Of a DNA stretch of 7,991 bases, positions 1-7,991 are shown piece by piece. A program made the translations under genes and the position numbers. How positions within the stretch are numbered: position 1 is the stretch's first letter; each line of letters begins with the position of its first letter. Below the pieces are notes generated by a model. It ran no database searches. It saw only the letters and a program-made list of their open reading frames with translations, and was not told where the DNA came from. Origin of the DNA: a virus (Duplodnaviria > Heunggongvirae > Uroviricota > Caudoviricetes); IMG/VR virus record IMGVR_UViG_3300011226_000007; one strand, 5' to 3'.

Positions 1-127
1 CATATTCACGACGAGCAATGCGGCTACCCTGCGGCGTCAGCAGAATGTCCCGCACCGACTGGCGCAGATGGTCAATATCAGTAATAACTTTGCCGTTGGT
101 ATTGTTCATCCCGCTATAAAGCGTCAT
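1..127 (-). CDS. W: Baseplate assembly protein W (gp25/GPW-like), 5' part only; 3' end lies beyond the window start
   Basis: Not in the ORF track because it runs off the edge. Reverse-complement of 1..127 reads ATG at 127..125 then MTLYSGMNNTNGKVITDIDHLRQSVRDILLTPQGSRIARREY..., which resembles the P2 gpW N-terminus. Its ATG overlaps the V stop (ATGA). Confidence 0.75.
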   Translation of the reverse strand, partial: MTLYSGMNNTNGKVITDIDHLRQSVRDILLTPQGSRIARREY

Positions 128-702
128 ACCGGGCCTCCGGTTGTATCGCCGCCTTTCAGGACGCCAGTATGCTGATGCGCATCAACCACGATCCCGTTAG
201 AACTCATCGCTCCGCCGCCCTGGGTAACGCCACCATTGATCACCACTTCGCTGTCAATGCGCGTGCGGTCAGCCTCCAGTACAAACTCACTGGTTTTCAT
301 GGTGATGTTGTCAGCGGCCTCAATGACCATTGATTTGATGCCCCTGACATACCAGCGCCCGGTGGCGGGTTCGTATTCAAACCAGCCACCGTCAGGATGT
401 TCTGTCACGCAGGCGTCCGCCGACGTCGACGGTGGTGCGAACTGATTCGAATAGATGGCGGGTAACGCAAAGGCGGTTTCCAGATTGCCGCCCAGACTCA
501 GCAGCACCACCTGCTCACCTTCCGATGGTCGCCACCATGTCCGGGCATTCCCGGCACGCAGGGTCAGCCAGCTGATCCAGTTGGTTTCTAAGTCGCCTGT
601 TTTCACCCGGCAAAGCCAGTTCTCTCGGTCCACTTCGGTCACGATGCCGGTGCGGATCAGGTTGGTGATAAGGCGCATGATTTCGGTTAATTGTACGTTC
701 AC
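124..702 (-). CDS. V: Baseplate assembly / tail spike protein V
   Basis: 192 aa ORF; sequence MNVQLTEIMRLITNLIRTGIVTEVD...HQHTGVLKGGDTTGGPV resembles P2 gpV over its whole length (recall, not a search). Start is GTG at 702 preceded by purine-rich RBS AAGGGGGGAAGG (reverse-complement of about 705..716). Stop TGA overlaps the W start. Confidence 0.9.
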   Translation of the reverse strand: MNVQLTEIMRLITNLIRTGIVTEVDRENWLCRVKTGDLETNWISWLTLRAGNARTWWRPSEGEQVVLLSLGGNLETAFALPAIYSNQFAPPSTSADACVTEHPDGGWFEYEPATGRWYVRGIKSMVIEAADNITMKTSEFVLEADRTRIDSEVVINGGVTQGGGAMSSNGIVVDAHQHTGVLKGGDTTGGPV

Positions 703-739
703 CCTTCCCCCCTTAAAGATGAACTGTATCTCAATAAGT

Positions 740-748
740 TGTATTATT
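740..748 (+). promoter_or_regulatory. Possible sigma70-type -10 element (TG-TATTAT) for the cargo operon
   Basis: AT-rich 87 bp divergent intergenic region 703..789; TATTAT at 742..747 preceded by TG at 740..741; no convincing -35. About 40 nt upstream of the ATPase ATG at 790. Weak, sequence-only guess. Confidence 0.2.
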
Positions 749-762
749 ATCAGTGTTGTAGT

Positions 763-780
763 TGTACTGTTAACGACACA
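763..780. promoter_or_regulatory. TGT-N12-ACA dyad, candidate Ogr/Delta-type late activator site (putative P_V late promoter element)
   Basis: TGTactgttaacgacACA at 763..780 is the only exact TGT-N12-ACA in the V upstream region. P2 late promoters (P_P, P_O, P_V, P_F) carry this dyad centred near -55. Centred here at about 771.5, which would put the TSS near 717, very close to the V RBS, so spacing is tight. Confidence 0.3.
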
Positions 781-789
781 AGGGAATAT

Positions 790-2019
790 ATGCTTACATC
801 AATAAATGAAATTCATGCTCCAATTCCATACACTAATAAGACAGCAAACTTATTTCTTGAGGGTAAAAATCTCATAATAACTGGTGGTAACGGGTGTGGA
901 AAAACTAGTTTCATTAGATCTATTTATGATTTCCTTAAAAGTAAGATAGATACACCTAATGATCATAATATTAATAATTTATACAGTACGTTAGAGTCCT
1001 ACAAATATCAATTGAATAGCGACGGGCGTGACGGCTTTAATTACGACTTTTATTCTGAAGAAATAAAAAAGATTGAATTAAAAATTGAACAATTAAAAGC
1101 CATTAGAATAGAAACAAAAGAAAAAGAAGGTGAAATTCGTTCACTATTGAGATTTCACAAAGCTCTACGTGAAGCATCAATTACCTCGCCAGTCGCCGTT
1201 CCTAGGCTATCAGCTTTAATTAAAGAAAAGTCACATTTTTCTAATGAAGTAGATGGTGATGATTTCTTTGAGAATTATTTGGTTAGCTTAAAAACCGCTC
1301 AGAGCTATGCAATTTCTTTTGATAATGACCATAATAAAGCTCAGCGGATACAGGAATGGTTTGATAAAATTGAAACTGATATGCAGGAACTTTTTGAAGA
1401 TAAAAACCTCTTACTAACGTTTGATAGTAACGAAGGAAAATTTTATCTCAATCAAGATGGTAAAGATAAGTTTACTTTTCAAACATTATCTTCTGGCTAC
1501 TCATCAATATTGAGAATTTATGCTGACTTAATAATGAGAGTAGAGATGTGGGAGTTAACACCTGACAGTATCGAAGGTATTGTTTTTATTGATGAAATAG
1601 ATGCGCATTTACATGTTTCTTTGCAAAAGCAAATATTAAGATTTTTTAGTCACGCCTTTCCTAAAGTACAATTCATTGTGACTACACATTCTCCGTTTGT
1701 TGTTACATCCGTCACAAATGCCATCATTTATGATCTGTCGACCAACACGCAAATTAGTGATGTATCTTCATATTCTTACGGTATCATCCTTCAAGAGTTA
1801 TTTGGAGTAAGTCCAATATCTAAAGTTCTTTCAGATAAGTTAGAACAACTTCAAGATATTATTGATAATATTAACAACAACAATATTGAAACTGCCAATA
1901 ACATAATACAATCCTTAGCACCTTTAGATGAATCCATGGACATAAATGCAAGTGCATTTATTGACTATGCAAAAATGCAGGTTTTAAAATATAAAAAAGC
2001 AAATTCTCAGGAGAAATAA
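790..2019 (+). CDS. ABC-type ATPase (AAA_15/AAA_21-like) with coiled-coil insertion; Septu PtuA-like defence ATPase candidate
   Basis: Track ORF 691..2019; preferred start ATG 790 (RBS AAGGGA at 780..785), because the 691..789 extension overlaps the V start and its upstream region. Walker A TGGNGCGKTS at 883..909; K/E-rich coiled-coil segment (EEIKKIELKIEQLKAIRIETKEKEGEIRSLL); signature-like TLSSGYSS; Walker B plus D-loop IVFIDEIDAHLH at 1579..1614; H-loop FIVTTHSPF. About 30% GC. Stop TAA 2017..2019 overlaps the next ATG. Confidence 0.8.
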   Translation: MLTSINEIHAPIPYTNKTANLFLEGKNLIITGGNGCGKTSFIRSIYDFLKSKIDTPNDHNINNLYSTLESYKYQLNSDGRDGFNYDFYSEEIKKIELKIEQLKAIRIETKEKEGEIRSLLRFHKALREASITSPVAVPRLSALIKEKSHFSNEVDGDDFFENYLVSLKTAQSYAISFDNDHNKAQRIQEWFDKIETDMQELFEDKNLLLTFDSNEGKFYLNQDGKDKFTFQTLSSGYSSILRIYADLIMRVEMWELTPDSIEGIVFIDEIDAHLHVSLQKQILRFFSHAFPKVQFIVTTHSPFVVTSVTNAIIYDLSTNTQISDVSSYSYGIILQELFGVSPISKVLSDKLEQLQDIIDNINNNNIETANNIIQSLAPLDESMDINASAFIDYAKMQVLKYKKANSQEK

Positions 2020-2680
2020 TGTTCAAGGTTAATAGAACATATCCTGCACCAAAGTCGCTTTCCAAGAAAGTACGTTATGACGGTGCTGATGTACATGAAG
2101 CACTACAGGAATGCTTTTATGGAAAATGTTACATTTGCGAAACAAAGAACCCTTTGGATATAAACATTGAACATTTTAAACCCAAGGGTGATGATGTGGA
2201 AAGAGCTTTTGATTGGGATAATTTATATCTATCATGTTCCAGATGTAACAATATAAAACTATCAAAATATGACAACATTCTTGANNNNNNNNNNGCTGTA
2301 AAGAAAAGGTATGGGATCGAGTAAAATTACTCCCAGGATATTCTTATAAAGCAAAAAAAATAACAGTAACAGCACTATTTAATGATATTGAAACGCAGAC
2401 GACCGCAGAGTTACTTGAGAAAGTATATAATAGCGATCATACCATGAGTAAAAAATTAACTTCTGCGGCACTTCGTACTCAAGTAGTGAAAACAACCCAA
2501 AAACTAATAAAAAATATTAATGAATATTATGAAGAAGATACTCCAACAGAACAAAAAAAATACTTAATTGAAAAAATGAAGATGATGATAAAAAGAGACG
2601 CAGCTTTTTCATCATTTTGCAGATGGATCATTATGGAAGATGCTGAATTAGGTCCAATTCTTGAACCATTTATGGATTAG
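2019..2680 (+). CDS. HNH-family nuclease (Septu PtuB-like candidate); single gene split in the track by a frame-breaking 10-N run
   Basis: ATG 2019 with RBS AGGAG at 2009..2013. HNH motifs: CYIC at 2127..2138, EHFKPK (His at 2172..2174), CSRCNN at 2235..2252. The track frame stops 9 codons after the N run (2285..2294), but the +2 frame is stop-free from 2297 through the track ORF 2444..2680 (49 codons without a stop in 30%-GC DNA). So 2019..2324 and 2444..2680 are most likely one gene of about 220 aa. Stop TAG 2678..2680. Confidence 0.7.
2285..2294. other. N run (10 nt), unknown sequence inside the HNH gene
   Basis: Directly visible; flanking coding frames differ, so the true length is not 10. 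Confidence 1.
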
Positions 2681-2683
2681 TAG

Positions 2684-2718
2684 TAAAAAGCCGCCTTCTA
2701 AGAAGGCGGTATTGATTA
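2684..2718. terminator. Rho-independent terminator, likely bidirectional (stronger for minus-strand transcripts)
   Basis: Stem CCGCCTT (2691..2697) / AAGGCGG (2703..2709), extendable to 9 bp, with loop CTAAG. Minus-strand reading gives the hairpin followed by TTTTTACTA; plus-strand reading gives TATTGATTA. Sits immediately after the HNH stop and downstream of S. Confidence 0.5.
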
Positions 2719-2874
2719 CATCCTAAAAGGGCGCACCAAAACCTTTAAAAAGAATCCACTGCCAGTTTTGTAACATTTAAATTCAAAGGCAATAAGGTAG
2801 AGCCAAAACCAGTTGATGATCACGCCCAAAGGACGTGGTTTTCAGTCAGCAATAAATGAAGTAGTCTAGTCACA

Positions 2875-3324
2875 TTATTTTATTAACAACTGAAACAATA
2901 TATCTTTTACTATATTTTCTGCATATTCATTCATTCCAAGTAAACGACGCTCTGCGTATCGTACTTCCGGTCCTTTGCGACTAACACGATCACGCAGGCC
3001 GTAATGGTGAACACGGGCAATACGCTGTACCTTACCTTCAAACTGCACGCTGGCAGAATCGGCGCTGGCGGCAGTTTTCAGGTATTTTGTGGTGCGAAGC
3101 TTTGTAAACATCTGACGTTTGATGCGCCCCTTTTTACTACGTGCTGTTACCCTTCGCGGTTCATAGCTGCTGNNNNNNNNNNNNNNNNNNNNNNNNNNNN
3201 NNNNNNNNNNNNNNNNNNNNNNNNNNNNNNNNNNNNNNNNNNNCATCATGCGACTTCTCGTGGCTGGTTCCAGATTCGCCAGCAAGGCACTCAACCAGTC
3301 GTCCACCTTCTGCAGTTCAGCCAC
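2875..3324 (-). CDS. S: Tail completion / virion morphogenesis protein S
   Basis: 149 aa ORF in the P2 gpS position (downstream of R) and of the expected size (P2 gpS about 150 aa); GTG start at 3324 overlaps the R stop (GTGGCTGA). Contains a 71-nt N run (3173..3243), so the internal sequence is unknown. Identification is by position, size and general family resemblance. Confidence 0.65.
   Translation of the reverse strand: MAELQKVDDWLSALLANLEPATRSRMMXXXXXXXXXXXXXXXXXXXXXXXXSSYEPRRVTARSKKGRIKRQMFTKLRTTKYLKTAASADSASVQFEGKVQRIARVHHYGLRDRVSRKGPEVRYAERRLLGMNEYAENIVKDILFQLLIK
3173..3243. other. N run (71 nt) inside gene S
   Basis: Directly visible. Confidence 1.
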
Positions 3325-3748
3325 GTTTCACCGTCCACATTTCTTCAGGTTCATCGGGTTCTGCTACAGCTTCAACGCTCGACACACTGCCGTCAGTGCT
3401 GACCAGCACACGTTCCGTCAGTTGCAGGTTAAGGCTGATATCACAGACATCGTTGCGCAGAATATCCACCTCAAAGGTAAATAGTTTTTCCCGTAACGCC
3501 GGGTTATTGATGGCATCGGGCTGGTTATCCCGCAGCCACAGCAAAACCGGGGCCATCAGCAGATTCTGGTCGCCGCTGAAATCCTCAATCACCGCGTTCA
3601 GGGTGTAACGGTACTCCCACGACATGGAGCTGGCCCCCGTGGCAACCAGCGAACCGTTATCCACAAACAGATGCAGTTTGTCCGGGTTATTGCGGACATA
3701 AGGCACCGCTTTATTGAGGGCGTGGCGCAGGGATTGTGGTTTGTTCAC
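3317..3748 (-). CDS. R: Tail completion protein R
   Basis: Track ORF 3317..3769 begins at TTG; preferred start is GTG at 3748..3746 with RBS AGGAG 8 nt upstream, giving MNKPQSLRHALNKAV... which parallels the P2 gpR N-terminus (MLKPDSLRRAL...). The rest (FVDNGS..., LLWLRDNQPD..., TERVLVS) resembles gpR. Confidence 0.85.
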   Translation of the reverse strand: MNKPQSLRHALNKAVPYVRNNPDKLHLFVDNGSLVATGASSMSWEYRYTLNAVIEDFSGDQNLLMAPVLLWLRDNQPDAINNPALREKLFTFEVDILRNDVCDISLNLQLTERVLVSTDGSVSSVEAVAEPDEPEEMWTVKRG

Positions 3749-4001
3749 TGTTTCGCTCCTGACACGCAATAATCATGTCCACTTTGTCTGCACAGACCGC
3801 CCAGGCGGCCTCCGTTTCATCCAGCAACGCGTTCAGATCACCGTTAGTGCGCGGCGTTGCCTGATCCAGCCGACACGGCGTCACTCGCGGACAACCACTG
3901 ACGGTAAGCTGTACCTCCGGTGAGTGCCGGACGTTCCCGCAGCCGGGTAATGTCAGCAGGCAAAGGAGTATCAGCCCAGCGGCGTAAATCCTCGTTCTCA
4001 C
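3711..4001 (-). CDS. lysC: o-spanin (Rz1/LysC-like outer-membrane lipoprotein), embedded in the +1 frame of lysB
   Basis: 96 aa; N-terminal signal peptide with lipobox LTLPGC; Pro-rich C-terminus; starts inside lysB and extends past its stop, the P2 LysB/LysC overlapped arrangement. Overlaps the 5' end of R by about 38 nt in another frame. Confidence 0.65.
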   Translation of the reverse strand: MRTRIYAAGLILLCLLTLPGCGNVRHSPEVQLTVSGCPRVTPCRLDQATPRTNGDLNALLDETEAAWAVCADKVDMIIACQERNSEQTTIPAPRPQ

Positions 4002-4272
4002 GTTTCAGTTCCTCGATCCGGTGTTGTCGTTGTCTCAGCAGTGCGCTGGTCTGTTCTGCTTCGGCATAGAGCCGCGCCTGCTCCCGGTTATTGGTTTCAG
4101 TCAGAATGGACAGACCGATCAGCTGGCTGTTTTTCTTCGTCAGTTCCTGCGCTTTACTTTTCAGCGCCGCGCGCTGCGTTTCGATGGTGTGGCTGGCGCT
4201 GTTAAGCCGCCACGACTGCCAGCCCAGCGCAACGAGTGCCAGCGCCACCACTACTGCCAGCGCACGCGTCAT
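3844..4272 (-). CDS. lysB: i-spanin (Rz/LysB-like)
   Basis: 142 aa; N-terminal transmembrane segment ALAVVVALALVALGW followed by a charged coiled-coil periplasmic domain; ATG at 4272 overlaps the K stop (ATGA). Confidence 0.75.
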   Translation of the reverse strand: MTRALAVVVALALVALGWQSWRLNSASHTIETQRAALKSKAQELTKKNSQLIGLSILTETNNREQARLYAEAEQTSALLRQRQHRIEELKRENEDLRRWADTPLPADITRLRERPALTGGTAYRQWLSASDAVSAGSGNAAH

Positions 4273-4715
4273 AGTCCAGCTCCTTTAAGGCACCAGGCCA
4301 TCTCCCGCGCACGGCGGTTATCCAGCCCCTGATTAAAAACACCTTTCACATAAACCCAGCGCGGCAACTGTCGGCACGCATCCGCCCAGCGCCGCTGATT
4401 GAGCAATTTCACCAGCGTGGAGCTGNNNNNNNNNNACCTTTCCAGCGCCCTCTCCACACGCAGCACGTTGGAGATCATCCCTTCCGCTGCCTGTCGTTCC
4501 GTAATGGTTTTGCCCGGGATGACGCCCGATGTATTACCAATGCCGTCGGTCCAGACACCCGCGCTGCACTGATACGGCTGCAGACGACAGCCTTCGTAAT
4601 CAGCAATCAGTTTCAGCCCCTCCACGGAGGTGTGAAGCTGCTGAAAACCCGGCAGCGTGGCAGTAATAGCCAGCACGGTCCCGACAAGGCAGCGTTTAAC
4701 GATTGATGGATTCAT
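4269..4715 (-). CDS. K: Endolysin, T4-lysozyme/GH24-like with N-terminal SAR (signal-anchor-release) segment
   Basis: 148 aa as read (10-N run at 4426..4435 inside); N-terminal hydrophobic stretch VKRCLVGTVLAITATLPGF; lysozyme motifs EGLKLIADYEGCRLQPYQ...GVWTDGIGNTSG resemble P22 gp19 / phage 21 R-type lysozymes. ATG 4715 with RBS GGGAGGA. Confidence 0.85.
   Translation of the reverse strand: MNPSIVKRCLVGTVLAITATLPGFQQLHTSVEGLKLIADYEGCRLQPYQCSAGVWTDGIGNTSGVIPGKTITERQAAEGMISNVLRVERALERXXXXSSTLVKLLNQRRWADACRQLPRWVYVKGVFNQGLDNRRAREMAWCLKGAGL
4426..4435. other. N run (10 nt) inside endolysin gene K
   Basis: Directly visible; lysozyme-like sequence continues in the same frame on both sides. Confidence 1.
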
Positions 4716-4911
4716 AGTCCTCCCGCGAGATCTGCCCGTCGCGCAGAAGCTGGTAGGCTTTGTGTTTGTAGTACCAGTTGATAGCCAGCATCAGCACACC
4801 AATCATCAGGCCGCCCAGCGTTGAGGCATCCTTGATGGACAAATCGCCCAGCCAGGCCAGCACAACGGCGATGCAGTACGTGATAAAGGCGCTGATGCGC
4901 TCAAGCGTCAT
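4696..4911 (-). CDS. Small two-TM membrane protein, putative holin (possibly pinholin-type partner of the SAR endolysin)
   Basis: 71 aa; two hydrophobic helices (ISAFITYCIAVVLAWLG and LGGLMIGVLMLAINWYY) and a charged C-terminus; sits in the P2 gene Y position between X and K; 3' end overlaps the K start by 20 nt. Sequence is not recognisably P2 Y, so the symbol is left empty. Confidence 0.5.
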   Translation of the reverse strand: MTLERISAFITYCIAVVLAWLGDLSIKDASTLGGLMIGVLMLAINWYYKHKAYQLLRDGQISREDYESINR

Positions 4912-4914
4912 AAT

Positions 4915-5118
4915 TCAGTCCCATAGCTGGACGGTCTGCACGGTGGTGGTGGTCGGAATGTCCGGCAGCTCCACCTGCAGCCCGTGAGGTAAAAAGGGGC
5001 CATATTCGGCAAGCCCCGGATTTGCCTTCAGTACCTGCTCCGTGACACCCTGCGTGCGCCCGTAATGACGCCAGCAAAGCGCGTCTACCGTGTCATACTG
5101 GTGCGCACGCACTTTCAT
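4915..5118 (-). CDS. X: Tail protein X
   Basis: 67 aa MKVRAHQYDTVDALCWRHYGRTQGVTEQVLKANPGLAEYGPFLPHGLQVELPDI... resembles P2 gpX (also 67 aa). ATG at 5118 overlaps the L stop (TGATG). Confidence 0.9.
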   Translation of the reverse strand: MKVRAHQYDTVDALCWRHYGRTQGVTEQVLKANPGLAEYGPFLPHGLQVELPDIPTTTTVQTVQLWD

Positions 5119-5582
5119 CAGATAAGCTCCACCGTGCAGTGCGGTGCATCCTGCACCCGGCTGATAGCCCAGCGGGCATCACGCCACAGATCGCCGCTGG
5201 CTTCTGCCAGTTCCTCGCCTCGCTTCACACCGGATGCCGTAGCGTCATAGTCCTGGTATCGTTCGTTGAGCATGGCGCGTGCCCAGCAGTAAACCGCGTT
5301 GAAATAGTGCTGAATGCGCTCACTTTTCCCGTCCAGCTGTTCCGCCGGAACCTCTGCCAGCGACGCATATCCCAGCATCTGCTGGCGTCTGCGAAACTCA
5401 TACAGCTCTGCGTTGACCTCCGAAATTGCCGACAGCGCAACCTGCTTTAAACGCGGCTGCGTCACCGTGCCGTCAGTGCGCATGACACTGCGAAACTCCG
5501 ACAGGTCCACATCAGGCCAGAAAGGCGTATTTCTGATGATTTCTGCCTGTTCCGGTGCCTGTTCTGGCGCAACAAACTTCAT
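5118..5582 (-). CDS. L: Head completion / stabilisation protein L
   Basis: Track ORF 5118..5645; preferred start ATG 5582..5580 (MKFVAPEQ...) with RBS AGGAGA 7 nt upstream. ...TPFWPDVDLSEF..., NAELYEFRRRQ, LWRDARWAISRVQ resemble P2 gpL. Confidence 0.85.
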   Translation of the reverse strand: MKFVAPEQAPEQAEIIRNTPFWPDVDLSEFRSVMRTDGTVTQPRLKQVALSAISEVNAELYEFRRRQQMLGYASLAEVPAEQLDGKSERIQHYFNAVYCWARAMLNERYQDYDATASGVKRGEELAEASGDLWRDARWAISRVQDAPHCTVELI

Positions 5583-5675
5583 GCTGCTTTCTCCTGAAAT
5601 AAAGGGCGGTGGACGGGGTTTTGATGTGGAAGTGCCTTTCGCCACCCCGTGCCGCCCGTGCGCGGGGCACGTTCT

Positions 5676-6304
5676 TTAGCGGCTGTCACTGCGCAATTTG
5701 CGCTCCAGCTGCTGCTTTTCTTTTTTCACGCCGCAGCGGGGATCGAGCTGCAGCGCANNNNNNNNNNGCTTTCACTCAGGACAGCGCCAATCGCTTTATG
5801 CAGACGCGCCCGTGACTGGTCCGGCATATCCAGACCGTCTGTCAGTTCCAGCGTCTGCAGCAACAGATCGGCATCAAAGCCGGTGGCGGCAAGCATTGCG
5901 CTCTGCGCGGCGTCTGCCATTTCCTCTGCCAGCACGGTCTGCACGTTGCGGTTACCCAGCGGCATCACCCAGCCATGACGCAGGGCATGACGCCCGATCT
6001 CCAGCGCCCCGGCATAATCTCCGGCATCAATGCGCCACAGCATCACGTACATCAGCACGTCATCCTGTTGAGCGCCTCCGGCAGCCAGGACACCCTCCGC
6101 CCAGGCGGCGTACTTCGGCAGCAACTCCACTTTGATTTCCGCTTTTTTGACCGTGGACTGAACGCCCTTGAGACGGCGTCGGTCTTCCGCTAGTTGCAGC
6201 AGCATCAGGTCATAGCCCGACGCGTGGCGAACGCTGCCGCCCTCGCGGGCGGCCTGTTCAGCCTGAACGCTCAGGCGATGCTGCCGTGCGGGACTCAGGC
6301 TCAT
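5676..6304 (-). CDS. M: Terminase small (endonuclease) subunit M, interrupted by a frame-breaking N run
   Basis: N-terminal 176 aa (MSLSPARQHRL...LHKAIGAVLSES) resembles P2 gpM. After the 10-N run (5758..5767) the track frame stops at 5726, but a different frame reads LDPRCGVKKEKQQLERKLRSDSR then TAA at 5678..5676, resembling the gpM C-terminal region. So the true end is 5676 and the N run is not a 1:1 mask. ATG 6304 with RBS GGAGCG inside the end of N. Confidence 0.85.
5758..5767. other. N run (10 nt) inside terminase gene M
   Basis: Directly visible; frame-breaking (see M). Confidence 1.
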
Positions 6305-6307
6305 GGA

Positions 6308-7366
6308 TTACGCTCCGGTTTCTGCTGCGGCGGCGCTGAAGTCGCCAATCTGGATGTTTTCCACCAGTGCGGCGCAGCGGTAGTCCTCAACCACATAGGC
6401 TTCGTTAACGGATTCAAAGTTTTCAATCCGGTCACGTTTCGGGTTGTCGATAACTGAACGGCGACGGGTGTCTTCCTGCCAGTAGATGGACAGGTTATCC
6501 AGACGGGTGATCAGCAGTGCATTCGGCGGGAAGAACGGCGCACGCACGGCCTGCAGGCCCCCCATGCGCTTCTGACTGATGATCATATCGGCAGCCAGTT
6601 TTTCACTGTTTTCCTGCTCTTTGTTGACCAGCGGGAAATACTTGTCAGACAGCAGTTCACGCCCGCAAATCACCACCAGATCGTCATCGTCCTGGTAGAC
6701 CACGTCGATAAGCTCATTGACGGCATCCATCACCACTGCGTCCAGGTTGGCATATTCGCCACCTTTCCCGACTTTCACCGCACCCGGTGTGGTTTCACCG
6801 CCCGTGGTGGTGCTGCCCATGACGTGATCCGGTGCATCCTCACGGATTTTCTGCAGCCAGCCTTTATTCACATCCTGCAGCAGCGGGTTTTCGCTACGGT
6901 TGGAGGTTTTCGCACGCTTCACGCCGTTAAAGCCGATCATGATGCGGTCCAGTGCCTGACGTTTCACGATGGCGTCACGGATACGCACCTGGAAATCCTG
7001 AAACTTCGCCCACAGGTCCAGCTTCGCGTAGGTCAGCACCGTGTCAAAGTTGGTCTGCTCGCATTTATATTCCACATCGACCATCAGCGTCGGATCGACA
7101 GGCTCACGCTCTTTCGCGGTGGTGTCAGTGGTTCCGGCAATGGTGCTGCCAACACCCAGCCCCAGCAGCTGACCGGACTGCTCAGTCACTGGCGTGACGT
7201 TAATCAGCGTCAGGAAAGCGGCGGACTGCTGGATCTGGTCTTCCAGCGTCTGCTGTACAGACGGCTCCACGGTGAATTTGCTGGACAGTTCTTCAACTGC
7301 CACACCGTTCAGACGCGCCAACTGCTGCAGGTAAGCGTTAAAAGCAAAGCGGGTATTCTTCTTCAT
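6308..7366 (-). CDS. N: Major capsid protein N
   Basis: 352 aa; MKKNTRFAFNAYLQQLARLNGV...SIYWQEDTRRRSVIDNPKRDRIENFESVNEAYVVEDY resembles P2 gpN (about 357 aa). ATG 7366 with RBS GGAG upstream. Confidence 0.92.
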   Translation of the reverse strand: MKKNTRFAFNAYLQQLARLNGVAVEELSSKFTVEPSVQQTLEDQIQQSAAFLTLINVTPVTEQSGQLLGLGVGSTIAGTTDTTAKEREPVDPTLMVDVEYKCEQTNFDTVLTYAKLDLWAKFQDFQVRIRDAIVKRQALDRIMIGFNGVKRAKTSNRSENPLLQDVNKGWLQKIREDAPDHVMGSTTTGGETTPGAVKVGKGGEYANLDAVVMDAVNELIDVVYQDDDDLVVICGRELLSDKYFPLVNKEQENSEKLAADMIISQKRMGGLQAVRAPFFPPNALLITRLDNLSIYWQEDTRRRSVIDNPKRDRIENFESVNEAYVVEDYRCAALVENIQIGDFSAAAAETGA

Positions 7367-7413
7367 CAGGTTTTGTGCTCCATCAGCAATTGGTCAGAGT
7401 GTCAGCGGGGGCG

Positions 7414-7991
7414 TTACCGCCTGNNNNNNNNNNNNNNNNNNNNNNNNNNNNNNNNNNNNNNNNNNNNNNNNNNNNNNNNNNNNNNNNNNNNNNNNNNNNN
7501 NNNNNNNNNNNNNNNNNNNNNNNNNNNNNNNNNNNNNNNNNNNNNNNNNNNNNNNNNNNNNNNNNNNNNNNNNNCACGCTGGCGGTAGTCCTGGCGGCTG
7601 TCTTCATGACTCAGCTTATTCACCAGTTCGTTAAAGGCGGTCTGCTGTGCCTGCAGGGCAGTCTCCAGCTCAGACAGACGTTCTTCCTGCTCAGACAGGG
7701 ATTTTTCGGTGCGTCCGCTCAGGTTCTGCTGCTCAGTGGCGACCAGCTCCACGGCCTTATGCACATCAGAGAACCGGGCATCGTCTGACTGCTCTTTTTT
7801 GGTGAACAGCGCCGTGACGCGGGCAAACAGGGACGGTTTGTCGTCCTGGACTTCTTCCAGTTCGATCACCGTTTCCTCTGCGGCGGTAAAGAGATTGGCG
7901 GGATTCTGCTTGCGGTTTGCCAGCGGGTTATGGGCTGCACTGGCGCTGAATGTCAGCATTTCCGTACCCAGACTGGCGGGGTCATCAATGG
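7414..7991 (-). CDS. O: Capsid scaffolding protein O, partial: N-terminus beyond window end, C-terminus obscured by a 151-N run
   Basis: Track ORF 7414..7959 begins at an internal Met; the frame stays open upstream to the window edge (...IDDPASLGTEMLTFSASAAHNPLANRKQNPANLF...), resembling the middle of P2 gpO. N run at 7424..7574 covers the 3' part, so the stop at 7414 is provisional. Confidence 0.8.
   Translation of the reverse strand, partial: IDDPASLGTEMLTFSASAAHNPLANRKQNPANLFTAAEETVIELEEVQDDKPSLFARVTALFTKKEQSDDARFSDVHKAVELVATEQQNLSGRTEKSLSEQEERLSELETALQAQQTAFNELVNKLSHEDSRQDYRQRXXXXXXXXXXXXXXXXXXXXXXXXXXXXXXXXXXXXXXXXXXXXXXXXXXXRR
7424..7574. other. N run (151 nt) covering the 3' part of gene O
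   Basis: Directly visible. Confidence 1.

Follow-up and report, generated by a model that had tools for sequence, protein, structure and literature searches.

The P2-like prophage in the window, the whole 7,991-nt stretch of DNA that we analysed, carries a long AT-rich block between its tail genes V and S. What does this block encode, where does it begin and end, and does its low GC content reveal when it arrived or who donated it? Our analysis indicates that the block is very probably a stand-alone Septu type I system occupying the S-V (orf30) slot, a hotspot at which such prophages swap cassettes. The finding of a Septu cassette in this slot is real but ordinary. The features on which the argument rests are as follows.

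124..702, minus strand: gene for the gpV baseplate spike (GTG start at 702), the conserved left flank of the slot
702..2944: exchanged AT-rich block of 2243 bp, from an anchored comparison with E. coli A37 (L052) and GC change points
703..789: divergent control region, 36% GC, inferred V late promoter (minus strand) and presumed ptuA promoter (plus strand)
763..780: TGT-N12-ACA dyad, Ogr/Delta-type late activator site of P_V, present in every surveyed relative
790..2019, plus strand: ptuA, 409-aa ABC-type ATPase of Septu (PADLOC, Pfam, motifs)
2019..2680, plus strand: ptuB, HNH nuclease of Septu, 217 aa in L001 (PADLOC, Pfam, motifs)
2691..2709, called on the minus strand: GC-rich hairpin with A-run and T-run flanks, the sole terminator-like site in 600-3000
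2711..2857: extra spacer element, missing from the Septu cassettes of other genera
2875..3324, minus strand: gene for gpS, tail completion (virion morphogenesis), the conserved right flank
2875..2944, minus strand: AT-rich variant 3' end of the gpS gene, about the last 23 codons, which travels with the cargo

Composition and homology delimit the exchanged block

A first-pass annotation had estimated from sampled 60-nt blocks a GC contrast of about 55% versus 30%, and the computed values bear it out. With N positions excluded, GC content is 56.6% in 1-702, 31.7% in 790-2680, 39.7% in 2681-2874 and 57.9% in 3325-7991. A two-breakpoint maximum-likelihood segmentation places the change points at 713 and 2944 (support intervals 676-719 and 2931-2951); the segment that they enclose has 32.0% GC, compared with 57.5% for the remainder of the window (log-likelihood gain 210; chi-square 413; p ~1e-91). 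GC dips at 3101-3300 and 7301-7600 are artefacts of N masking and not true changes in composition. Codon usage was compared in L001, an unmasked twin of the locus, where GC3 is 24.6% in ptuA and 24.3% in ptuB versus 57-69% across ten phage genes.

The left switch in GC falls within the 87 bp from the V start to the ptuA start, just where it had been anticipated. The right switch does not fall in the 2681-2874 spacer, nor the boundary at 2720-2874, as had been proposed. Instead, low GC carries on into the last 70 nt or so of S, and both composition and homology break inside gpS at about 2944; the last 19 codons and stop of gpS have 18% GC, while the first 129 codons have 58%. Position 781, formerly suggested as the left boundary, is a functional edge only, directly past the retained P_V activator site (763-780). 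The break in homology and composition is at 702/703.

Comparison with related P2-like prophages shows that the flanks are conserved and that the slot is either empty or filled with other cargo. The left flank encodes gpV (Pfam Phage_base_V, 5e-18, plus the Apex motif) and the right flank gpS (Pfam Phage_tail_S, 2.7e-24; 86-89% protein identity to enterobacterial S; a 71-N mask lies inside it at 3173-3243). Relatives match the gpV DNA at 94-95% identity as far as position 701, and DNA homology to them restarts at 2927-2972 within S. The closest backbones, namely E. coli A37 (L052), Escherichia sp. L014 and Klebsiella phage KP12, all have an empty S-V slot of 68 bp. The backbone proteins of L014 are 96-100% identical to those here, S and LysB excepted, and the V DNA of L052 is 98.6% identical. 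The alignment to L052 shows perfect identity to 701 and picks up again at about 2945. The 2243-bp block replaces 139 bp of this closest empty-slot relative, and therefore it is no clean insertion. With it come a V late-promoter region of its own, in which the activator dyad is retained, and its own AT-rich version of about the last 23 gpS codons.

Of 5426 complete E. coli genomes, 1036 contain this V type and only 13 contain the Septu cargo, with the cassette 96-99% identical across those 13. On these alignments, the earlier proposal of horizontal acquisition holds as a description of an exchanged accessory block. Low GC is no mark of a recent arrival from a low-GC donor.

The ptuA and ptuB genes

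The slot contains only ptuA and ptuB, adjacent and on the same strand, antisense to the phage late genes; the ptuA stop and ptuB start share 1 nt (TAATG at 2017-2021). RefSeq names the products 'AAA family ATPase' and 'HNH endonuclease' only.

PtuA matches PADLOC profile PDLC00268 (1.3e-139) over profile positions 2-409 of 411, as well as Pfam AAA_21 (69.8 bits) and AAA_15 (49.2 bits), both above their cut-offs. Its Walker A lysine (K38), LSSGY signature (233-237), Walker B residues (D268-E269) and H-loop histidine (H300) are invariant among 10 aligned homologues. PtuB matches PADLOC profile PDLC00321 in two parts (residues 1-88, 2e-46; the remainder, 1e-45), which cover profile positions 1-94 and 97-223 of 223 on either side of a mask, and also Pfam HNH (28 bits; cut-off 21.4). 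C37xxC40, E51-H52, N68 and C73xxC76-N77-N78 are invariant in 7 homologues. The score of PtuB against NCBIfam TIGR02646 (40.8 bits, E 2e-10, residues 23-78) is below the curated cut-off of 52.15; by this measure PtuB is a related, more distant branch relative to that HNH subfamily, which does not bear on its membership of Septu under the PADLOC models.

The pair combines the features of Septu membership: a PtuA profile, a PtuB profile, an adjacent same-strand arrangement and the catalytic residues (K38, D268/E269 and H300 in PtuA; H52, N68 and N77 in PtuB). The Walker A Lys, Walker B Asp/Glu and HNH His/Asn are essential in Septu EcB88 (PMC13096335). What RefSeq annotates as an ATPase/HNH pair can be named PtuA and PtuB. 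The nearest solved PtuA structures are retron Ec78 PtuA (9kjx, 3e-14) and stand-alone Septu (8ee4, 4e-11). Because the similarity of both proteins to solved structures is distant, this system may differ from the solved ones in its trigger and in whether it targets tRNA or DNA.

An association with a retron was considered and rejected. We found no reverse-transcriptase ORF in the slot, and an Rfam scan of the whole window (E<=1) returned no match, msr/msd RNA included. The scores against the retron models NF041760 and NF041761 are far under their cut-offs (for the retron PtuA model NF041760, 95.9 bits versus 500).

Control region, gpS tail and spacer

The divergent region between V and ptuA is present here in an 86-87-bp version that, together with its motif GATGAACTrTATyTC, also occurs in the Cronobacter and Enterobacter Septu cassettes. 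We infer that it contains both the V late promoter and the ptuA promoter, whose hexamers match at consensus level only; the candidate ptuA promoter is a weak consensus match (TATTAT at 742-747). In a sigma-70 promoter scan, site counts equalled the shuffled expectation and favoured no particular promoter. A ptuA Shine-Dalgarno sequence, AAGGGA, is present at 780-785.

The activator dyad occurs in every surveyed relative at -64/-65 from the V start. In this Septu lineage it lies at -77/-78, a displacement of 13-14 nt away from V. The V gene itself begins with GTG behind a G-rich ribosome-binding site, where the relatives have an ATG start, and its transcription start is predicted near 716, giving a 14-nt leader. 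The relatives share the V geometry of the P2 record, in which the annotated transcription start is the first base of V, apparently leaderless, and the centre of the activator site is 55.5 nt upstream of that start.

At the other end, the gpS tail reads MNEYAENIVKDILFQLLIK, compared with the empty-slot consensus VNDEVETxTRDTLLRWLAG. Being recognisably homologous to gpS, this AT-rich tail came from a P2-like phage. A tblastn search of the last 27 S residues against 50,697 phage records retrieved ordinary S tails at 41-56% identity and no donor. The same search gave chance matches in mycobacteriophages. The breakpoint within S varies by cargo type, from the last 2-3 codons up to about 32 codons.

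The hairpin at 2691..2709 is placed as a bidirectional terminator, and would end transcription of ptuAB on the plus strand and of the late operon ending in S on the minus strand; the P2 record annotates the O-operon terminator at the equivalent site after S. Beyond it, the extra spacer element matches, at 83% identity, intergenic DNA on 10 other E. coli chromosomes and has a small hydrophobic ORF on its minus strand. The ptuB-to-S spacers of two other Septu loci are 29 nt (L006) and 16 nt (L007). A blastn comparison of 2681-2940 with the phage collection gave no match, and an Rfam scan of the chromosomal spacer homologue found chance-level matches only. This 147-185-nt element may represent a module for a small toxin or a small RNA that rides with the cassette.

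The S-V slot as a hotspot

We surveyed 30 species-representative loci with both S and V, and found the slot empty in 10 and occupied in 20 (two of the occupied loci, from two Silvania species, share an identical cargo protein). The cargo includes Septu (3 loci), PARIS, type II restriction-modification, PDC-S49, PDC-S31 and a SIR2-like protein, together with unidentified families, for well over a dozen unrelated cargo families overall. Separately fetched loci add Septu (L006 and L007), PARIS (phage 813R9), P2 orf30 and a Cartapus gene. The cargo ORFs are antisense, with the exception of one methylase and two small phage-like ORFs. Slot GC is 32-39% according to cargo, and 44% for the restriction-modification slot. 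The locus has the marks of a hotspot, with two conserved core flanks, variable content and an empty state. Published work counts orf30 among three loci with horizontally acquired genes in P2-like phages (PMC3091744) and describes a defence hotspot inside P2 tail genes (PMC13586616).

The positions of the breakpoints suggest that cassettes would be exchanged by recombination within the conserved bodies of V and S. Between the same phage pairs, cargo proteins are 67-80% identical versus typically 80-95% for most backbone proteins, a greater divergence that fits either repeated swapping or faster evolution. More tentatively, and with the balance leaning against it, the exchanged unit could comprise the defence genes, a V late promoter in variant but working form, and a new C-terminus for the essential tail protein gpS, so that each cargo comes with its own AT-rich S tail. 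If this is true, part of a structural gene, along with a late promoter, is rewritten again and again as defence genes are swapped, and the swapping may tune tail-gene expression.

Origin and state of the cassette

Other explanations would read the same block differently. Its low GC might reflect a recent, direct transfer from a low-GC donor organism, with too little time since then for its composition to drift toward that of the host. Its 32% GC and GC3 of 24% are far under phage and usual E. coli values, and near-identity of the cassette across 13 E. coli genomes fits a recent spread. However, its close PtuA relatives are all from Enterobacterales; a search for a low-GC donor among PtuA homologues returned about 70 top named matches from Enterobacterales with one exception, Vibrio and others at about 43% identity, and no low-GC donor. 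The same slot holds Septu cassettes in five other genera at 67-70% protein identity and equally AT-rich. Those with 67-70% PtuA identity, in Cronobacter, Enterobacter, Scandinavium and Tatumella, have 33-36% GC within backbones of 53-61% (for Cronobacter and Enterobacter, PtuA is 68-70% identical and GC is 33-36%). Other cargo of the slot is, with few exceptions, as AT-rich, and the AT-rich S tail, as a homologue of gpS, points to a P2-like phage as the source. We consider a recent low-GC donor improbable. Equally AT-rich cassettes fill the same slot in other genera; AT-richness is a lasting trait of the slot's cargo pool and no sign of a recent low-GC donor.

Occupied and empty slots in otherwise similar phages are also what one would expect if a self-mobile element, such as a transposon, an integron-like cassette or a site-specific island, had inserted between S and V. 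Yet the slot contains no transposase or integrase, the S breakpoints differ by cargo type, and the block takes the place of 139 bp and does not simply add to it. Transposon-like ends were rejected, as a search around 702-2944 found no direct or terminal inverted repeats; the probability of a mobile element is close to negligible. It is highly improbable, too, that the cargo is a decaying and inactive remnant with ptuB broken at 2285-2294. As given, the ptuB frame does shift over the N run there, leaving ORFs 2019-2324 and 2444-2680 in different frames. But the run of 10 N corresponds to 2 nt in L001, a 99% identical twin that reads GATTGC (D-C) across the gap and carries ptuB as one intact 217-aa gene annotated as an HNH endonuclease, and the frame break is a masking artefact. 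Both halves of ptuB fit one PtuB profile from end to end, the catalytic residues are all retained, and defence pseudogenes were few in a published survey of P2 hotspots (PMC13586616). With 2 nt masked in the window, the intactness of ptuB here is deduced from 13 close relatives.

Proposed action of the cassette

Septu requires its ATPase and HNH motif, protects in an abortive manner and cleaves tRNA-Tyr (PMC13096335); stand-alone PtuAB, according to the summary given in PMC12819146, forms a hexameric assembly and nicks DNA. If the cassette works as published for other Septu systems, the PtuB HNH nuclease would be restrained by PtuA oligomers until infection by a competing phage frees its activity. 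The nuclease would then act by cleaving tRNA-Tyr, as in one E. coli Septu, or by nicking DNA, as in another. Phage growth would be halted, at least partly via abortive infection, and the lysogen population would be protected together with its prophage. In the lysogen, ptuAB would be transcribed from its own promoter, divergent from V, and the hairpin at 2691-2709 would shield it from late transcription. Phage protection by this cassette is a prediction from these parallels.

Comparison with known systems

The locus adds a defence system with well-defined limits in the least-studied accessory slot of P2. Its GC change points delimit the swapped module, which extends past the cargo genes to take in a promoter and the last part of an essential gene. 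As the mobile defence pool is persistently AT-rich, low GC in such slots neither dates an acquisition nor names a donor.

Like the described Septu type I systems (Doron et al. 2018; 8EE4/8EE7; EcB88), the cassette consists of two adjacent, overlapping genes encoding an ABC-type ATPase, with Walker A and B, signature and H-loop motifs, and an HNH protein with a CxxC...CxxC arrangement and a catalytic His. Its PtuA is shorter, however, with 409 aa versus 465 in 8EE4 and 550 in retron PtuA, and aligns to solved PtuA over the C-terminal ATPase lobe only. The PtuAB of retron Ec78/Eco7 (type I-A) is a homologous ATPase-nuclease pair and provides the best matches among solved structures, but the PtuA here does not have the retron-specific PtuA insertions.

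The slot itself corresponds to the P2 orf30 locus, with the same gpS-gpV position, cargo opposite to the late-gene strand, a terminator after S, and an activator site and P_V before V. It differs in carrying a recognised two-gene defence system, whereas orf30 is a single uncharacterised gene that neither PADLOC nor NCBIfam recognises. The P2 old/tin (gpA-gpQ) and Z/fun hotspots are likewise small loci between conserved genes with a rapid turnover of anti-phage functions (PMC9122126, PMC9519451, PMC13586616). In contrast to them, S-V is a separate slot that has received less attention in those papers, and its exchanged unit extends to a late promoter on one side and to the 3' end of an essential tail gene on the other.

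An AT-rich Septu cassette lies between two late genes

The late region of this P2-like (Peduoviridae) prophage reads on the minus strand, and the interval between the tail genes gpS and gpV (the S-V slot, the orf30 locus of P2) holds two plus-strand genes:

124-702, minus strand, gpV
790-2019, plus strand, ptuA
2019-2680, plus strand, ptuB
2875-3324, minus strand, gpS
3317-3769, minus strand, gpR
beyond gpR, in gene order, the lysis genes, then X, L, M, N and O

The PADLOC model for Septu PtuA aligns with ORF 790-2019 over the full length (1.3e-139), Pfam AAA_21 and AAA_15 match it too, and the stop of this ORF overlaps the ptuB start in TAATG. A single PtuB model matches 2019-2680 in two pieces (profile positions 1-94 and 97-223), and a Pfam HNH domain lies within the gene. 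Homologues invariably retain the PtuA Walker A (K38), signature motif, Walker B (D268-E269) and H-loop (H300), as well as the PtuB CxxC...CxxC, E51-H52, N68 and N77-N78. We looked for a reverse transcriptase and a retron RNA in the slot region and found neither, and retron-specific NCBIfam models scored far under their cut-offs. Together the two genes form a stand-alone Septu system of type I. The frame of ptuB seems to change at 2285-2294, where 10 N stand, but this is an effect of masking: a 99%-identical unmasked E. coli twin (L001) has 2 nt there, and its ptuB is one 217-aa gene.

The composition break was quantified by segment. GC content is 56.6% in 1-702, 31.7% in 790-2680 and 57.9% in 3325-7991, and at third codon positions both cargo genes have 24-25% GC versus 57-69% for ten genes of the phage. 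Likelihood segmentation with two breakpoints delimits the block as 713..2944, at 32.0% GC inside and 57.5% outside (log-likelihood gain 210, chi-square 413; support intervals 676-719 on the left and 2931-2951 on the right). The first-pass annotation had estimated flanks near 55%, a block near 30% and AT-rich codon usage in the cargo; the computed values agree, with a GC difference far beyond chance. Sliding-window dips at 3101-3300 and 7301-7600 are false, produced by N masks (2285-2294, 3173-3243, 4426-4435, 5758-5767 and 7424-7574), which do not keep length, as the run in ptuB illustrates.

The cassette is acquired cargo, probably exchanged by recombination within V and S

Among 5426 complete E. 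coli genomes, 1036 have this V type and 13 have the cargo, invariably beside gpS. The S-V gap is just 68 bp in E. coli A37, despite V DNA that is 98.6% identical; it is also 68 bp in Escherichia sp. L014, whose backbone proteins except S and LysB are 96-100% identical, and in Klebsiella phage KP12. With empty slots in near-identical backbones and the cargo so much rarer than the V type, the core of the earlier proposal stands: the AT-rich block is acquired cargo. The backbone shows another small presence/absence difference, as lysA is missing between the lysozyme gene K and lysB (3844-4715), whose ORFs abut at 4269-4272; the close relatives L006 and L052 (A37) have a 125-aa LysA-family gene there.

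Identity to the closest empty relative is perfect to 701 and regained at ~2945, so that 2243 bp (702-2944) replace 139 bp, in agreement with the compositional change points (713 and 2944). A left boundary near 781, as proposed at first, survives only as a functional edge past the activator site, while identity had already ended at 701; the proposed right boundary at 2720-2874 was wrong, because gpS itself contains the break. In this essential tail gene the final 19 codons and stop have 18% GC and encode MNEYAENIVKDILFQLLIK, whereas empty-slot phages of many genera share the tail VNDEVETxTRDTLLRWLAG at 52-63% GC in most (37-38% in two Rosenbergiella loci). Most surveyed cargo families have their own S tail, AT-rich in most (18-43% GC in most filled slots), and the breakpoints in S vary with cargo type from the last 2-3 codons up to ~32 codons (S genes of loci L014-L050). 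All S tails retain a common residue pattern and are thus homologous rather than random read-through.

No repeats bracketing the block were found and no recombinase is present, which speaks against a self-mobile element and in favour of an exchange through recombination within the conserved body of each flanking gene, V and S. A recent low-GC donor would also account for the composition, but diverged cassettes in enterobacterial mobile elements are equally AT-rich. PtuA relatives of 67-70% identity occur in Cronobacter, Citrobacter, Enterobacter, Scandinavium, Nissabacter and Tatumella, and all four checked (Cronobacter, E. hormaechei, Scandinavium and Tatumella) carry a Septu cassette of 33-36% GC in the S-V slot of a P2-like prophage with a 53-61% backbone; Klebsiella relatives (~57% identity, 32-33% GC) are found next to the integrase of another kind of mobile element. 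Such relatives indicate long residence without drift to phage composition. The GC break consequently marks accessory pool DNA rather than a recent low-GC donor. Between the same phages, cargo proteins are 67-80% identical versus typically 80-95% for most backbone proteins, compatible with either repeated swapping or faster evolution.

Both edges carry lineage-specific elements

The 87 bp at 703-789 gave no BLAST alignment to relatives with other cargo, and retain a TGT-N12-ACA dyad at 763-780. The dyad lies at -77/-78 from the V start in this Septu lineage versus -64/-65 in all other surveyed loci. In the P2 record, the corresponding site is annotated as the P_V activator-binding site, centred 55.5 nt upstream of a V transcription start that is the first base of V, a geometry that apparently yields a leaderless V mRNA. 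Applying this spacing here would put the V transcription start near 716, giving a 14-nt leader with the G-rich ribosome-binding site that precedes the GTG start of V. In relatives whose slot is empty or filled with other cargo, V begins with ATG, no ribosome-binding site is visible and the dyad is at -64, a geometry that agrees with the P2 record. The promoter variant of the window, 86-87 bp long, was also found with Cronobacter and Enterobacter Septu cassettes, and the putatively leadered V accompanies Septu in L006, L007, L028 and L040.

The ptuB-to-S spacer is 194 bp in the E. coli cassette lineage versus 16-29 nt in other genera, whose Septu cassettes do not contain the spacer element. Its 2684-2865 stretch, hairpin included, is ~83% identical to an intergenic stretch of 10 other E. 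coli chromosomes (L012 4976-5148), flanked by genes for a MurR/RpiR regulator and a porin in the vicinity of eno. The two copies each contain a small hydrophobic minus-strand ORF with a conserved N-terminus (MGVIINWFWLYLIAFEFK..., 37 aa, in the window; MGVVIHWFWLCLIAFGFK..., 53 aa, in the chromosomal copy). Rfam scans of both yielded no match above chance level, and on the minus strand the fold z-score is just -1.9; candidate roles for the element are those of a small toxin, small RNA or leader.

The S-V slot holds diverse cargo

Comparison with related P2-like prophages, as the first-pass annotation had suggested, revealed empty slots, PARIS, restriction-modification and other contents. Our survey (gpV query, one genome per species) gave 30 loci with both S and V, 10 empty and 20 filled with 0.6-3.8 kb.

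Cargo of the 20 filled S-V slots (two Silvania species with an identical cargo protein included)
Septu: 3 loci
PARIS: 1 locus
Type II restriction-modification: 1 locus
PDC-S49: 1 locus
PDC-S31 and an unknown gene: 1 locus
SIR2-like protein: 1 locus
Unknown families: 12 loci

Surveyed cargo ORFs are antisense to S and V, save one methylase and two small phage-like ORFs. Filled slots have 32-39% GC (44% with restriction-modification) and empty slots 51-60%. PADLOC identified PARIS (AriA and AriB) in the slots of Escherichia phage vB_EcoM-813R9 (L004 1303-3406) and of L038 (4805-6899); GenBank labels the 813R9 genes 'putative enzyme with ATPase activity' and 'hypothetical protein'. The P2 slot holds orf30 and the Cartapus slot one unknown gene. 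PADLOC gave no match for some ten unrelated AT-rich families of cargo (L020, L021, L023, L025, L026, L030, L031, L044, L045, L050, L003 1298-1828 and P2 orf30), whose position makes them candidate uncharacterised defence or exclusion genes.

Proposed function and comparison with known systems

A promoter within 703-789, facing away from P_V, may drive expression of the cassette in the lysogen, and ptuAB transcription would end at the hairpin 2691-2709, which is so placed that it could stop the late operon after S too. By analogy, the cassette may shield the lysogen from competing phages. Its mechanism is drawn from other Septu systems: in Septu EcB88 the Walker motifs of PtuA and the HNH motif of PtuB are both required, protection is of an abortive type and tRNA-Tyr is cleaved (PMC13096335), and stand-alone PtuAB, as summarised in PMC12819146, forms a hexameric assembly, nicks DNA and is reported to respond to a phage tail fibre. 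The closest solved structures to this PtuA, retron Ec78 PtuA (3e-14) and stand-alone Septu PtuA 8EE4 (4e-11), are both distant, and the trigger and substrate of this distant variant may differ. The orf30 locus is one of three P2-like phage loci for horizontally acquired genes (PMC3091744), and a defence hotspot inside P2 tail genes has been reported (PMC13586616). Neither the defence system nor the accessory slot that it occupies is new, and the phage family has been well studied.
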